37,853 bases of DNA from a virus. Taxonomy: Duplodnaviria; Heunggongvirae; Uroviricota; Caudoviricetes. Positions 5,079-36,485 of the stretch are shown here, piece after piece. The notes beneath the pieces were generated by a model. That model was not told the origin of the DNA. It was given only the letters and a program-made list of their open reading frames with translations, and ran no database searches. Location: IMG/VR virus record IMGVR_UViG_2851971941_000003. The stretch is one strand, 5' to 3'. The translations under genes were made by a program, and so were the position numbers. Each line of letters starts with the position of its first letter. Within the stretch, counting starts at the first letter, position 1.

Positions 5079-6157
5079 CAGAACGGGTCCTCCTGTACTC
5101 TGGCTTTTTTCTTTTTCCGCGCGCCGGGGGCTTCGGGTTCAGGCAGATAAGCATCAGGTGGGCCGACACGGATTTCCGTCAGGGTGCCATTCTGGTCCTG
5201 AGTAAACGTGACTTCCGAGACAAGCAGTTCGGTATTGTCGAAACCACAGACCGGATCGAAGACAATCACCCGCTGGTTGGGCTGCCACAGCGTACCGTTA
5301 CCCTGTCGCCAGCCCTGCACCACATAGGTGGTTTCATCCGTCCGCGCCGCCCGTTGTCGGGCTTCAAAGTCAGCACGCGCAATACAGCCTGCCCCCGTAG
5401 CCTGCCCTGTCTGCCTGATATACATCGGACGGTAACGGGCAATAAATGCATCCTCTGTGCGGGCCCGCAGCGCGGTGGTGGTGGCCTCACCGAAATCATC
5501 GTCGTTTCCGGCACGCTGCCCCGCCACCTGGTAAACTGAAAACCGCTCCCGGATACTCTTCTCCGTATCACAGGAAAGGATGTTTTCCCCAAGTACCAGC
5601 GCGGTATGTGCCTGCGTTGAGCCAATACCACCAATCACCAGCCTGCCGTGCGGGTCGTCATAAGCCAGCGCCTGCTGCTGACCGAGTATTTTGTTGATCA
5701 CCTCGATCACCGTTTCACCGTGATCAGGCTGGACATCCGGAATAACACCCGACGGCGCATCGCTGTTCACCACCTCAATGCCGAAAGGCGCAGCAAGCGC
5801 CTGCGCAATCTGTACCAGCGATCGTCCGTTAAACTGTGTCGGTTCGGCTGCACAGTCAATCAGGTCAGCAGTCAGACTACGTCCGGCAATACCGGTGCTG
5901 ACCGAACGGGCATCGTAACGAACGGGGGTCGCCTCCACCCAGCCGGTGATCACCAGCTCATCACCAATCAGCACTTCCACTTTTGAACCATTTTTAATGC
6001 GCGGCTGAAGCGTGGTGATACCCTCATCACCCGGCCACTGGCGGGTGATCTCCACGCTGAAATCCCGCGCCAGCCGTTCAATACCGGCACCGATGCGCAC
6101 CGATGTCCAGCCATTCCACTCCCGGCCATTTACCCGTAGCGTGACATTGTCGTTCAT
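5078..6157 (-). CDS. Baseplate hub-like tail protein (Mu gp44 / P2 gpD-like)
   Basis: 359 aa; position after the DNA-circulation-like gene. Confidence 0.55.
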   Translation of the reverse strand: MNDNVTLRVNGREWNGWTSVRIGAGIERLARDFSVEITRQWPGDEGITTLQPRIKNGSKVEVLIGDELVITGWVEATPVRYDARSVSTGIAGRSLTADLIDCAAEPTQFNGRSLVQIAQALAAPFGIEVVNSDAPSGVIPDVQPDHGETVIEVINKILGQQQALAYDDPHGRLVIGGIGSTQAHTALVLGENILSCDTEKSIRERFSVYQVAGQRAGNDDDFGEATTTALRARTEDAFIARYRPMYIRQTGQATGAGCIARADFEARQRAARTDETTYVVQGWRQGNGTLWQPNQRVIVFDPVCGFDNTELLVSEVTFTQDQNGTLTEIRVGPPDAYLPEPEAPGARKKKKARVQEDPF

Positions 6158-24646: not shown

Positions 24647-25107
24647 TGGACACTGACGTTACTCAGAATTTATGGACAATGCCTGCAACGATTATAGCGA
24701 TTGTTGGCATTTTTTTAACAATATTAGGCTGGATAGTTACAGCAATACTTACTCGCATTAACAATGCGAAGAATTTAAAAAAACTAGAAATAAATAGACT
24801 TATTGATGAGTTATTTTATAAATTAGATTTTATTTATAGCGAAATGCTTGAATTGCTGCGAGACGATAAAAAAGACAAACAAGTCCTATATTACATTTTT
24901 ACATCATCAGTAAGGCATGTTGAGTTTATTTGCGAGCGAATTGAACTATTAGACAACAAAAAAAACAAAGACAATGGATTAATATCTGAATTAAGACAAG
25001 CATGTACTAACGATGCGAAATATGAAAAAGAAAAAATTGGAACAACATTACATGAAATCCAAAGCGCTAATGAAAAACTCAAAAACAAATATCTGAAATC
25101 ATTTTAA
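24646..25107 (+). CDS. Small membrane protein (one N-terminal TM helix, charged coiled-coil-like tail), candidate effector
   Basis: 153 aa; TM segment about aa 11-36 (TMPATIIAIVGIFLTILGWIVTAIL); start overlaps the previous stop (TAATG). Confidence 0.6.
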   Translation: MDTDVTQNLWTMPATIIAIVGIFLTILGWIVTAILTRINNAKNLKKLEINRLIDELFYKLDFIYSEMLELLRDDKKDKQVLYYIFTSSVRHVEFICERIELLDNKKNKDNGLISELRQACTNDAKYEKEKIGTTLHEIQSANEKLKNKYLKSF

Positions 25108-25109
25108 TT

Positions 25110-25143
25110 AAAAAAGAACCGGCTAAGCCGCCGGTTCTTTTTT
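25110..25143. terminator. Bidirectional rho-independent terminator between the cassette and Q
   Basis: A6 - gaaccggc - taagcc - gccggttc - T6: 8-bp GC-rich stem flanked by A-run and T-run; the T-run overlaps the Q stop codon. Confidence 0.6.
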
Positions 25144-25501
25144 AATTTATTACACAAAGGCAGCCTTCAATAAATCCAATGGCCATTTGTAATTCTTTTC
25201 TAATTGTACCATCAGAATACTTCCTCTTTTTAGCAATAGCACGAAGTGAGATGCCAACAACAAAGTGAGCAATTATCAGCTCATACTCTTCCGGCTTATA
25301 TTTACGCAACCTAGCCACACAACTATCTATCATGATGCCTTCATCATCATCACACTGGAGACGTGACTTTTTACCGTGTGGTAAAAGTCCCTTGAAACCA
25401 GCCGCTATCGGCTGCCAGTCCACACCACTGTTATCTGCTGCCGCCCATGCTCCCCAGCGGTCCAAAACTTCATACATATCACGCATCAACCTTCTCCACA
25501 A
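25142..25501 (-). CDS. Late antiterminator Q (QuuD / phage 21-like family)
   Basis: 119 aa; resembles E. coli DLP12 QuuD from memory (RWGAWAA...WQPIAAGFKGLL...RLQCDDDE...). Confidence 0.75.
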   Translation of the reverse strand: MWRRLMRDMYEVLDRWGAWAAADNSGVDWQPIAAGFKGLLPHGKKSRLQCDDDEGIMIDSCVARLRKYKPEEYELIIAHFVVGISLRAIAKKRKYSDGTIRKELQMAIGFIEGCLCVIN

Positions 25502-30601: not shown

Positions 30602-30620
30602 ATGTACCTCCGGTATACAT
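30602..30620. promoter_or_regulatory. Candidate operator (imperfect palindrome ATGTACC-N5-TATACAT)
   Basis: In the cI/cro intergenic region; same half-site as the other operator candidates; overlaps the cro ribosome-binding region. Confidence 0.4.
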
Positions 30621-30650
30621 ATTACATGATTGAAATGAACCTTCAAGATA

Positions 30651-30671
30651 CTTGTACCTTAACGGTACAAG
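30651..30671. promoter_or_regulatory. Candidate operator (perfect palindrome CTTGTACC-ttaac-GGTACAAG)
   Basis: 8-bp perfect inverted repeat with 5-bp spacer between the divergent cI and cro starts. Confidence 0.45.
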
Positions 30672-30686
30672 GGTTTTAATTTTGTT

Positions 30687-31361
30687 ATGAAAACAATCCA
30701 TGACATCCGGCGGTCTAACGCCAGAAAACTGAGAGATGGTGTTGGCGGGAATTCTTCCTTTGCCACTATGATTGATCGCGAGCCAACCCAGACCAGCAGG
30801 TTTATGGGAGATGGTGCTACTAAAAATATCGGTGACAGCATGGCACGACACATCGAAAAATGTTTCGACCTGCCTGTCGGATGGCTCGATCAAGAACACC
30901 AGACAACGAACATCACAAAAAAACCTGATGTTTCAATCACTAATAAACAAATCACATTAGTCCCTGTCATATCATGGGTACAGGCCGGAGCATGGAAAGA
31001 AGTTGGATATTCTGAGGTTGATTTGAGCACAGCAGAAACGTATCCCTGCCCTGTCCCCTGTGGGGAAATGACTTATATCTTGCGGGTGATAGGTGATTCA
31101 ATGATTGATGAGTACCGCCCGGGAGACATGATTTTTGTCGATCCTGAAGTACCTGCCTGCCACGGTGACGACGTTATTGCATTGATGCACGATACAGGTG
31201 AAACCACCTTCAAAAGGTTGATAGAAGATGGGACACAGCGTTATCTCAAAGCGTTAAACCCAAACTGGCCTGAGCCTTACATTAAGATCAACGGTAATTG
31301 CTCTATAATTGGTACAGTGATTTTCTCAGGAAAACCAAGAAGATACAAAATCAAAGCCTAA
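30687..31361 (+). CDS. CI-type prophage repressor (HTH plus S24 LexA-like autopeptidase domain)
   Basis: 224 aa; C-terminal S24-like region with the GDSM serine motif (RVIGDSMIDEY), found in lambda CI/LexA-type repressors. Confidence 0.85.
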   Translation: MKTIHDIRRSNARKLRDGVGGNSSFATMIDREPTQTSRFMGDGATKNIGDSMARHIEKCFDLPVGWLDQEHQTTNITKKPDVSITNKQITLVPVISWVQAGAWKEVGYSEVDLSTAETYPCPVPCGEMTYILRVIGDSMIDEYRPGDMIFVDPEVPACHGDDVIALMHDTGETTFKRLIEDGTQRYLKALNPNWPEPYIKINGNCSIIGTVIFSGKPRRYKIKA

Positions 31362-31396: not shown

Positions 31397-31400
31397 ATAC

Positions 31401-31429
31401 TTGACAATGTACCTTTGAGATACATAATG
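31401..31429 (+). promoter_or_regulatory. pL-like promoter with overlapping operator
   Basis: Consensus -35 TTGACA, 16-17 bp spacer, -10 CATAAT. The operator-like palindrome ATGTACC-N5-GATACAT (31407-31425) sits in the spacer and a further ATGTACC follows at 31427-31433. Confidence 0.45.
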
Positions 31430-31554
31430 TACCCAAGCGAAACAACAAACAGGCAGGTCGTCCACGAAGTAGCCCCCTGGAGCATATGAAGTCCAGGATG
31501 ATTCGTTGAGTCATGTTGTGCCACTAGGCACTCATGTTAAAGCAGGTGTATGAA

Positions 31555-31830
31555 ATGAAAGTCCAGATTTTAAACAATAACTGTGAAGTCGTTTGGTCAT
31601 ACGACATAGCCGCCCCTGTAGATCAGAGCGGCGATAGCTGGACCAATGGGAAACATCAGATTATGGCTGGAGTTGTGTTCTCTTTACGCCGTGCTTTGGA
31701 ACAGGCTGAAGTATTTCCATCAGACCCTGAATGGAAATGGCCTTTTTCTATTTGTCCAAATTCGGAGAGCACATTTCAGAAAATTGGTCAGAAAGTCGCA
31801 CTCGAAGAGCATCAGCCAACTGTTTCCTGA
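31555..31830 (+). CDS. Hypothetical immunity-region protein (rex-slot), first gene after the pL-like promoter
   Basis: ORF with AGGTG 6 nt upstream of the internal ATG at 31555; AT-rich; no recognisable family. Confidence 0.4.
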   Translation: MKVQILNNNCEVVWSYDIAAPVDQSGDSWTNGKHQIMAGVVFSLRRALEQAEVFPSDPEWKWPFSICPNSESTFQKIGQKVALEEHQPTVS

Positions 31831-31993
31831 TTTTTTCAGGTAACTCGTCGGCATCGCAGAAACAACAACGCTCGATCATGTTGAAAGCCGATTCGTAGAA
31901 CTGTTTCTGCTGAGTGTCGCTGAGACAGGAAAAGAGCGACGTTACGATGATTTTATTAATTGCATTATCAAGTTCTTTTTCATCAAAAGTCAT
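31748..31993 (-). CDS. Hypothetical protein convergent with and overlapping the preceding ORF
   Basis: 81 aa, GGAA 7 nt upstream of the ATG; Cys-containing (CCFCDADE). Confidence 0.35.
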   Translation of the reverse strand: MTFDEKELDNAINKIIVTSLFSCLSDTQQKQFYESAFNMIERCCFCDADELPEKIRKQLADALRVRLSDQFSEMCSPNLDK

Positions 31994-32248
31994 TTGATTT
32001 TCCTTTTATGTATACGGGCTTAAAAGGATACCACCGAGCCTGAAGTGGTGAAAAGACAGGCACATAACAGCTAAGTATTTTCAACCAAAGAGAATCCTTA
32101 GCGTTGTGGTGAATGCGGCTCAGCGCACGCGGGTTAAGGTTGAGGCTGACAGTCGACCTTCTGTGGATACCCACCCGCCTGGTGTGCAACCTTCGCCAGG
32201 CACCGGGAGGCACCCGGCACCACAACTTTATGCTGTGTGTAGTCCTGG

Positions 32249-32294
32249 CGGTACCAGCTTGTACCCTTGCTTCCGGCTGGTACCGTCCTTTTTA
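32249..32294 (+). terminator. Rho-independent terminator in the early-left leader
   Basis: 10-bp stem cggtaccagc/gctggtaccg with 17-nt loop, followed by tcctttttac. Confidence 0.5.
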
Positions 32295-32382
32295 CAAAAC
32301 AGAGAAGAGCATCACCGGACGACGGGCTCATAACCCAATCCATCCGGGCGGCTGCCACCGCAGGTGTTCTTCTCTGTTTTGT
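32294..32382. repeat. 15-bp perfect inverted repeat (acaaaacagagaaga / tcttctctgttttgt) enclosing a 59-nt GC-rich core
   Basis: Read directly from sequence; immediately upstream of the first early-left gene. Confidence 0.5.
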
Positions 32383-32430
32383 GGAGAAACTAATCGGCCT
32401 TGCAGGGTCGATATGATGAGGAGCAGCAAA

Positions 32431-32793
32431 ATGGCTAGCGAACGCAGTACTGATGTGCAGGCATTTATCGGGGAGCTGGACGGCGGCGTATTTGAAACCA
32501 AAATCGGCGCAGTTCTCAGTGAAGTCGCTTCCGGTGTGATGAACACGAAAACCAAAGGTAAGGTCTCACTCAACCTGGAAATCGAACCATTTGATGAGAA
32601 CCGTGTGAAAATCAAACACAAACTCTCATATGTTCGCCCGACTAACCGCGGGAAAATTTCCGAAGAAGACACCACCGAAACGCCGATGTATGTCAATCGC
32701 GGTGGTCGCCTGACTATTCTGCAGGAAGACCAGGGACAGTTACTGACTCTTGCCGGTGAACCTGACGGAAAACTCCGCGCAGCAGGTCGTTAA
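32431..32793 (+). CDS. YfdP-like hypothetical protein
   Basis: 120 aa from the ATG preceded by GAGGAG; same length and position as yfdP in the K-12 CPS-53 remnant, from memory. Confidence 0.5.
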   Translation: MASERSTDVQAFIGELDGGVFETKIGAVLSEVASGVMNTKTKGKVSLNLEIEPFDENRVKIKHKLSYVRPTNRGKISEEDTTETPMYVNRGGRLTILQEDQGQLLTLAGEPDGKLRAAGR

Positions 32794-36409: not shown

Positions 36410-36485
36410 TGGTGCCGATAATAGGAGTCGAACCTACGACCTTCGCATTACGAATGCGCTGCTCTACCAACTGAGCTATATCGGC
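36410..36485 (-). tRNA. thrW: tRNA-Thr (anticodon CGU), prophage integration target
   Basis: Minus-strand 76-nt sequence GCCGATATAGCTCAGTTGGTAGAGCAGCGCATTCGTAATGCGAAGGTCGTAGGTTCGACTCCTATTATCGGCACCA with clover-leaf features and CGT anticodon; next to proA as thrW is in E. coli. Confidence 0.9.

Follow-up and report, generated by a model that had tools for sequence, protein, structure and literature searches.

The 437-nt stretch at positions 31994-32430 of an SfV-type prophage is a spacer inside the early-left operon, lying between the genes orf33 (31534-31830) and yfdP (ATG at 32431). Positions refer to the window, that is, the whole 37,853-nt stretch of DNA that was analysed, and features are on its plus strand unless stated otherwise. 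We found that this spacer holds two structured RNA elements separated by an intrinsic terminator: a divergent member of a known family of small RNAs (sRNAs), STnc100/PasD, called module A in the following, and an apparently undescribed RNA resembling initiator tRNA (tRNAfMet), called module B. The cassette formed by them is neither a nut nor a put site.

A preliminary description of this stretch had proposed an analysis of folding and covariation across related prophages. Among homologues, the pairs of both structures are kept by compensatory and G-U changes, which indicates selection at the RNA level; the view that the stretch is non-coding and selected as RNA is thus supported. The G+C richness noted earlier was also confirmed, the fraction being 0.578 across 32100-32400 compared with 0.44-0.46 in the flanks. 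The sequence of the region shares 99.5% identity with phage SfV and recurs unchanged (100% identity) in many E. coli chromosomes; a match to the stretch was found in 2785 of 5426 complete E. coli genomes (about half), and 1813 carry nearly all of it. None of the 25 best-matching records annotates an RNA there, and a literature search by sequence strings for the motifs of the cassette returned nothing relevant.

Module A, a divergent STnc100/PasD RNA

In a relaxed scan against Rfam, the only significant match was to RF02076 (STnc100), which aligned to 32081-32296 on the plus strand over model positions 1-206 (41.4 bits, E-value 2.2e-7). The gathering cut-off of this family is 47 bits, and the match is not among the results of a scan at the gathering threshold. 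The Rfam search that had been suggested earlier therefore placed the 5' half of the region with STnc100, below the cut-off, and assigned module B to no family. Likewise, the proposal of a small RNA stands for the 5' half, where the full-length, sub-threshold STnc100 match is accompanied by an exact 21-nt signature, while the 3' half has no Rfam family. The signature, CACCGGGAGGCACCCGGCACC at 32201-32221, comprises the P5 hairpin and the 3' strand of the closing helix P1, and its exact copies were found in more than 120 Enterobacterales loci, often several per locus, when one genome per species was searched. An alignment of these copies by their anchors revealed a shared plan: P1 around GGUG...CACC, AAU, P2, variable inserts, P4 and P5. 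In the window, the module A core (32103-32226) follows this plan with P1 at 32103-11 and 32218-26, an exact GGUGAAU at 32108-32114, P2 within 32114-30, P4 at 32177-84 and 32194-32201, and P5 (CCGGG-AGGCA-CCCGG) at 32203-17.

P1 covaries, its first extension pair being UA, CG, UG or AU (3.27 pairs compared with 2.62 in shuffled data). The stretch after P2 is complementary to the loop of P4 in nearly every copy, with many different sequences; in the window, AAGGUUG (32136-42) faces CAACCUU (32187-93). Column-wise counting of these pairs is impossible owing to the variable inserts, and a permutation test was used instead: in 58 non-redundant copies the mean complementary run was 6.10 nt against 4.46 ± 0.13 nt, and none of 5000 permutations gave a value as high. 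The STnc100 family thus contains an H-type pseudoknot that Rfam does not annotate; in module A, P1 encloses it together with four helices.

The window copy has GCGGCUCAGCGCACGC as its P2 in place of the canonical CCCCCUnnGCGGnGGGG, a variant shared by 17 of 133 copies. Canonical copies score 48-90 bits with the Rfam model, whereas most copies of the window type (variant-B) fall below 47 bits and only one (L015) reaches 47.8. Judged by these scores, the window-type copies constitute a divergent STnc100 subfamily that is mostly missed by the Rfam cut-off. In Buttiauxella and Pantoea such copies lie directly upstream of yfdP/yfdR homologues in the same orientation, and several have no terminator and abut a ribosome-binding site. 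Phage mEp460 carries a further-diverged module A, and phiNP has an unrelated sequence in the same place.

Published STnc100 and the related PasD are prophage sRNAs encoded between Q and the lysis genes or after stx2. PasD was reported to be an abundant, Hfq-bound sRNA validated by northern blotting (bioRxiv 10.64898/2026.05.13.724894), and expression of STnc100 has also been reported (PMC12370729). Stx phages have been reported to carry STnc100 upstream of a sialate esterase gene, and in HK639 we located a canonical copy between Q and the holin gene. By eye, canonical copies show -10-like boxes just before P1, and no convincing sigma-70 or sigma-54 promoter was seen by eye beside module A of the window. 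The genomic settings of other copies are diverse: in Citrobacter braakii (L076, 3717-5512) STnc100 cores are interleaved with tRNA genes, and at about 15 loci of Kosakonia, Enterobacter, Klebsiella and Raoultella (L012 and others) a canonical core lies some 100-200 nt upstream of a KdgM-family porin gene. In mEp460 (L004, 323-511, minus strand), matches to C4 antisense RNA and isrK above the Rfam cut-offs lie in an annotated Rha regulatory gene region; judging by these matches, they point to a P1-type c4/ant-like module.

Two further elements precede module A. H0 (ACCACCGAGCCUGAAGUGGUGAAAAGACAGGC, 32030-32064) is a conserved sequence, nearly identical upstream of window-type module A copies in Lelliottia, Pantoea, Buttiauxella and E. 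coli loci, and it always stands beside the start of an unrelated divergent gene on the minus strand. Its predicted alternatives are a hairpin or a possible H-type pseudoknot, in which ACCAC/GUGGU is interleaved with GCCUG/CAGGC, the second stem being invariant. P0 (32070-32102) is a hairpin abutting the closing helix of module A, identified as an inverted repeat (I3) and in the minimum-energy fold; by eye, a helix of different sequence occupies its position in the mEp460, phiNP and Buttiauxella loci.

Module B and its tRNAfMet-like tip

Module B (32289-32387) starts at the U-tract of the terminator and folds into a three-way junction (ΔG -51, z-score -7.8). Its outer stem of 25 bp, G-U pairs counted, is formed by 32289-32313 and 32363-32387 and contains the perfect 15-bp inverted repeat (arms 32294-32308 and 32368-32382) that had been noticed before; with arms extended to 25 nt, complementarity is 84%. 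The preliminary description had read this repeat as enclosing a GC-rich core. As a simple hairpin that picture does not hold: the repeat is the outer stem of the junction, inside which lies a copy of the tRNAfMet anticodon arm. Arm A (32315-19 with 32343-47) carries the tip GGG-CUCAUAA-CCC at 32324-36, and arm B pairs 32348-51 with 32358-61. The folds of the inverted repeat have z-scores of -7.1 and -7.8, and none of 200 shuffled sequences folds as well. The 37.8-kb window contains just two perfect inverted repeats with arms of 15 nt or more and a loop no longer than 100 nt, compared with a mean of 0.00 in 100 first-order Markov simulations; the only other one, AATTAAAAAAGAACCGGC with its complement at 25106-25147, is a bidirectional-terminator-like hairpin between two convergent open reading frames (ORFs).

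The 14 nt at 32323-32336, CGGGCUCAUAACCC, are identical to the anticodon stem-loop of E. coli tRNAfMet, with its three G-C pairs and CUCAUAA loop, and are placed in a predicted apical hairpin. The tRNAfMet sequence used in this comparison was verified by its 100% identity to annotated tRNA-Met genes, about four per genome, in 5425 E. coli genomes. Homologues of module B were collected by a pattern search of viral contigs and by BLAST. The tRNAfMet-like motif is kept both in those from BLAST and in those from the pattern search, which itself required the motif, and a C-to-U change in the Klebsiella-type group gives a G-U pair.

Three architectures were distinguished among the homologues. The first is the E. 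coli early-left form, as in the window; the second is another early-left form with a different outer-stem sequence; the third, Klebsiella-type, is found in late regions, a few nucleotides after tRNA-Arg or tRNA-Asn genes. Members of the last group have an outer stem of only 6-7 bp, followed by N-CCA in about 13 of 14 variants, and are of tRNA size (about 71 nt). One IMG/VR contig, L222, carries both the early-left long-stem form and the late tRNA-like form ending in N-CCA (at 6075 and 14629). Module B is apparently an undescribed long-stem RNA that is found in two settings, early-left and tRNA-adjacent.

Because a joint MAFFT/RNAalifold alignment of all three groups placed the outer stem and arm B wrongly, pairs were counted in the long-stem group only, and the other groups were compared by anchored alignment. 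Across the 12 long-stem homologues, standard pairs fill 96.5% of the pair cells and six pairs have changed on both sides, for example from A-U to C-G in five sequences and from G-C to C-G in four; the covariation score of 0.150, compared with 0.096 for shuffled data, was not reached in any of 500 shuffles. Arms A and B also change by compensation between the groups. By comparison, the 24-nt core GACGGGCUCAUAAYCCAAUCCAUC is nearly unchanged in Escherichia, Klebsiella and Citrobacter homologues and has a single substitution in Salmonella ST64B. Conserved G-U pairs are numerous in both module A and module B, and hence the plus strand is the functional one in both.

Database searches gave no name to this element. 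The best Rfam matches of module B were noise (E > 1), and neither ARAGORN nor the Rfam tRNA model calls it, the only tRNA in the window being tRNA-Thr (36410-36485); the Klebsiella-type relative is likewise not called by either. Nothing relevant was found in the literature on yfdP or on tRNA-like decoys.

Terminator, promoter and operon layout

The terminator at 32247-32293 has a 13-bp stem (32247-32259 with 32275-32287) followed by CUUUUU (32288-32293), with a folding energy of -23.0 kcal/mol according to RNAfold. The terminator had been reported before with a shorter stem, and the arms 32249-32258 and 32276-32285 are indeed 100% complementary within the 13 pairs predicted here. A simple terminator scan missed it because its loop of 15-17 nt exceeds the 8-nt limit of the scan. 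The STnc100 model includes a terminator, and 32247-32293 aligns to that part of the model. At the same place before module B, terminators of different sequence are found in ST64B, phiNP and the IMG/VR group-2 loci, and the unit of terminator, module B and yfdP is preceded by a different module in each of SfV, mEp460 and phiNP. From this comparison, the cassette appears to be a mosaic of two independently mobile structured-RNA modules.

The spacer was placed in its operon by means of the promoter. Minus-strand cro-like and CII-like genes precede the S24 repressor gene (30687-31361, plus strand), after which the rightward order is orf33, the RNA cassette, yfdP, yfdQ (DUF2303), yfdR, xis, int and tRNA-Thr. 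Between the repressor gene and cro are three operator-like repeats with the sequence TGTACC-N7-ATACA (30603-30669). The best promoter match of the area, TTGACA-16-CATAAT at 31401-31428, is overlapped by two further operators, TGTACCTTTGAGATACA (31408-24) and TGTACCCAAGCGAAACA (31428-44), which match the three oR operators. Given this overlap and the gene order, the promoter is the cI-controlled pL, and the early-left transcript starts near 31435. The region had been thought to be a leader upstream of the operon, which is not the case: pL lies upstream of orf33, about 600 nt before the region, and the cassette is internal to the operon, some 560-1000 nt from its start and after orf33. The 3' end of orf33 is overlapped by an 81-amino-acid ORF on the minus strand (31748-31993), which has a good ribosome-binding site and would lie antisense to the transcript from pL. 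This ORF and orf33 both match PHROG families of unknown function, PGAP annotates orf33 alone, and orf33 has no Pfam match; Pfam and PHROGs hinted at a function neither for these two ORFs nor for yfdP.

At the other end of the spacer, a small hairpin (32393-32412, ΔG -10.4) stands 5-6 nt upstream of the GAGGAG ribosome-binding site (32418-32423), which had been recognised before and which precedes the yfdP ATG at 32431-33; by eye, hairpins of different sequence occupy the same position in ST64B, phiNP and IMG/VR variants. The start of yfdP in SfV (where it is orf32), in the PGAP annotation and in K-12 corresponds to 32431, and PGAP calls the internal ORF a frameshifted pseudogene. The earlier judgement that the stretch has no convincing coding frame was thus borne out, and a coding reading was rejected. 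In the K-12 prophage CPS-53, the yfdO-yfdP spacer (L344, 5248-5604) keeps only the ribosome-binding site and start of yfdP, the entire cassette being replaced by an unrelated repeat-rich sequence.

Directly after pL lies another conserved element, a 63-nt motif at 31445-31507 with P1 (31445-49/31503-07), P2 (31452-54/31460-62), P3 (31476-80/31493-97) and the invariant CCACGAAGUAGCC. SfV, ST64B, phiNP and upwards of 100 viral contigs share it, with operators of differing sequence ahead of it, and compensatory changes are seen at 8 of the 13 pairs predicted. Rfam assigned it to no family (best hits with E > 1), and a search by sequence string found no trace of it in the literature. Its exact word was not found at the window-type loci of other genera, for which reason an early-left location is not asserted for every one of these loci.

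Proposed mechanism, alternatives and related systems

The analysis has established what the modules are, where they end, how they fold, how they are conserved and where the promoter lies. On this basis a hypothesis regarding the function of the stretch may be proposed, to which we assign a probability of about one half: it would be an RNA-only cassette in the cI-repressed pL transcript, which supplies two small stable RNAs and whose terminator gates yfdP-xis-int. After induction, pL transcripts would reach the terminator at 32247-32293. Those that stop there would constitute the module A sRNA, about 190-240 nt long assuming a 5' cut near 32056-32103; the terminator would then be both the 3' end of this RNA and, on the model of tL1, an internal barrier in the pL operon. 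Transcripts that read through would carry module B, whose two-turn stem would be cut, most likely by RNase III, as the 25-bp stem has the roughly two turns (at least 20 bp) of near-perfect duplex expected of RNase III sites. The cut would free a small tRNA-like RNA and leave a yfdP message with the hairpin 32393-32412 at its 5' end, ahead of the ribosome-binding site. Expression of yfdP-yfdQ-yfdR-xis-int would in this way depend on read-through, for which the cassette itself would not be the antiterminator; if an RNA provides it, 31445-31507 is the better candidate.

The cassette is read as two small stable RNAs since both modules are also met in the late regions of phages, in the company of tRNA genes and terminators, and since module B has one conserved core in two excision contexts. 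In the early-left form of module B the 25-bp stem is kept by compensatory changes, whereas the late-region relatives end in N-CCA; such a pair of excision routes around one conserved core argues for the core itself being the product. Several points weigh against this hypothesis. No transcript ends, processing sites or read-through data for the locus were found in the searchable literature, and K-12 transcript data cannot inform on the cassette because CPS-53 does not have it. Cleavage by RNase III is suggested by stem length alone. The U-tract consists of only five U after a C and the loop is large, so that termination may be weak and the sRNA may be a poor Hfq ligand. No sigma-70 promoter was seen by eye directly upstream of module A, and its RNA would therefore exist here only after induction. 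STnc100 itself has no assigned function (PMC9029176), and the terminator-less copies abutting a ribosome-binding site leave room for a cis-regulatory role of module A.

An unlikely alternative is that module A and the terminator form a riboswitch-like attenuator, whose pseudoknotted core binds a small molecule or protein and thereby sets the balance between stopping at 32293 and reaching yfdP-xis-int. Such a device would explain the extreme conservation of the pseudoknotted core, with invariant single-stranded nucleotides across genera, and the position of canonical copies, which by eye appear at or near transcript 5' ends. Next after the core comes a terminator (46 of 133 copies under strict scan criteria) or else, immediately, a ribosome-binding site with its gene, much as the expression platforms of riboswitches vary, and about 15 of the copies lead the porin gene mentioned above. 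However, the genes that follow are of several kinds (porin, lysozyme, Rha-like, yfdP and others), and some cores stand directly before tRNA genes, which leaves no expression platform and argues against a riboswitch. Inspection, which was not systematic, revealed no conserved anti-terminator pairing, the possible pairing of CCUGGCG (32244-50) with the 3' strand of P4 not being kept in ST64B or mEp460, and PasD and STnc100 were reported as trans-acting, Hfq-associated sRNAs. We likewise consider it unlikely, and rather doubtful, that module B is the remnant of a decayed tRNA gene or a plain RNase III or insulator hairpin, with a tip that has no function of its own. Its late-region relatives do lie in tRNA arrays, so that module B may plausibly derive from a tRNA gene bearing a CAU anticodon, and the failure of ARAGORN and the Rfam tRNA model to recognise it would be expected of such a remnant; moreover, long stems between cistrons are classical processing sites, as in the lambda N leader and the early RNase III sites of phage T7. 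A decaying pseudogene, however, would not hold its loop so strictly, and the 24-nt core stays nearly unchanged across genera while both flanking helices change by compensation. The Klebsiella-type group maintains the pairing through a G-U pair, and contig L222 carries both architectures.

Antitermination had been among the roles proposed for the region, in the form of a nut- or put-like element, and both candidates were rejected. No boxA or boxB match was found in 31400-32440, a range running from pL to yfdP, and no N-like gene is annotated in an identical prophage, which has only a Q-family protein for the late genes. That the cassette, through module A or B, is a put-like processive antiterminator that replaces the missing N is improbable. 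The lack of an annotated N-like gene would favour it, as would the need for xis/int expression to pass a terminator that has a structured RNA just upstream, and STnc100 cores elsewhere are also found inside terminator-rich operons. Yet the putL sequences of HK022 and HK639, which we read directly, are unrelated to the cassette in sequence and architecture; CACCGGGAGGCACCCGGCACC does not occur in HK022 even with three mismatches, and Rfam scans of the control regions of HK022 and HK639 revealed no relation of put to the cassette. Module A begins about 670 nt from the pL start rather than beside the promoter, and when the window was searched by regular expressions and low-stringency BLAST, each module proved to have no further copy in the right or late operons, hence no counterpart of putR. 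The family has been reported as discrete sRNAs with a terminator in the Rfam model, which fits stopping at the adjacent terminator and not suppressing it, and this, together with the poor position of the window copy, argues against a put-like role. In phiNP, moreover, the terminator and module B are retained, and the place of module A is taken by a sequence that is not STnc100. The 31445-31507 motif is better placed: its position, not its sequence, matches that of HK022 putL, and by this analogy we hypothesise that it is a better read-through (antiterminator or leader) candidate than the cassette. Least probable is the idea that the region acts as DNA, as a palindromic protein-binding or recombination site, or encodes an N-terminal extension of yfdP. 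It could appeal to the perfect, palindrome-like repeat and to the ORF 32113-32793, which crosses the region and where PGAP puts a 'frameshifted hypothetical protein'. Against coding, the curated starts of yfdP lie behind GAGGAG at 32431, and yfdP homologues of other genera begin at the same methionine with unrelated sequence upstream; against a DNA site, the conserved G-U pairs (U2-G, U4-G, U5-G, U24-G and G21-U) would be A-C mismatches on the other strand and are meaningless for a DNA palindrome.

Beyond the proposal of two small stable RNAs, one may speculate, with low confidence, that module B represents a new kind of phage RNA that imitates the anticodon arm of initiator tRNA, is excised by RNase III early and by tRNA-type processing late, and serves as a decoy or sponge for factors recognising the tRNAfMet loop. 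VapC-type toxins of Shigella and Salmonella cleave the anticodon loop of tRNAfMet (PMC4705866) and would, if this is true, be candidates for capture; otherwise IF3 with the 30S P site, or MetRS, may be considered. Such a mimic would protect or retune translation initiation during phage development. In any case, for STnc100, one of the most widely annotated sRNAs of enterobacteria, the analysis adds a pseudoknot supported by covariation and a divergent subfamily, the latter in another regulatory setting, a repressor-controlled early-left operon. What had looked like a perfect inverted repeat is a conserved tRNAfMet-like RNA, a concrete object for studying the role of tRNA-like RNAs in temperate phages. 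Phages of the SfV, ST64B and phiNP type, which lack an N gene, must pass strong terminators to express xis and int, and the cassette together with 31445-31507 makes this question testable.

Comparison with known systems brings out both likenesses and differences. Phage lambda has the same general layout: a repressor gene, pL, a first small gene, an internal terminator, and then the recombination and xis-int genes, and its N leader has a long duplex stem just ahead of the ribosome-binding site. The likeness to nutL, the RNase III site of the N leader and tL1 is one of layout only, as the cassette has no boxA or boxB and no N-like protein is annotated, and RNase III cleavage of the window stem is a prediction. 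With the put sites of HK022 and HK639 the cassette shares a structured RNA in the early-left transcript of a phage without an N gene, upstream of an intrinsic terminator. Put itself is about 70 nt long, consists of two stem-loops directly after pL and has a second copy in the right operon (PMC9378689), whereas the cassette is single-copy, lies about 670 nt after the pL start and is unrelated in sequence and fold.

Module A resembles STnc100/PasD in its full-length alignment to the model, the exact CACCGGGAGGCACCCGGCACC and GGUGAAU, P1, P4, P5 and the 3' intrinsic terminator, as well as in being prophage-borne and multi-copy in Enterobacterales. It differs in its score (41.4 bits against a cut-off of 47), in having GCGGCUCAGCGCACGC and not CCCCCUnnGCGGnGGGG as P2, in its extra 5' helices, and in its location in a cI-controlled early-left operon with no promoter of its own seen. 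Module B comes closest to tRNAs and to the tRNA-like stable RNAs of phage tRNA clusters. It is like tRNAfMet in its 7-nt CUCAUAA loop on three G-C pairs, identical to that of the anticodon stem-loop, and its late-region relatives are about 71 nt long, follow tRNA genes and end in N-CCA. Unlike a tRNA, it has no D or T arm, and its 'anticodon' arm is too long (7 bp, an internal loop and 3 bp); in the window, a 25-bp stem replaces the acceptor-like stem and there is no CCA. For its tip, the thrS operator and other mimics of anticodon arms are the appropriate comparison.

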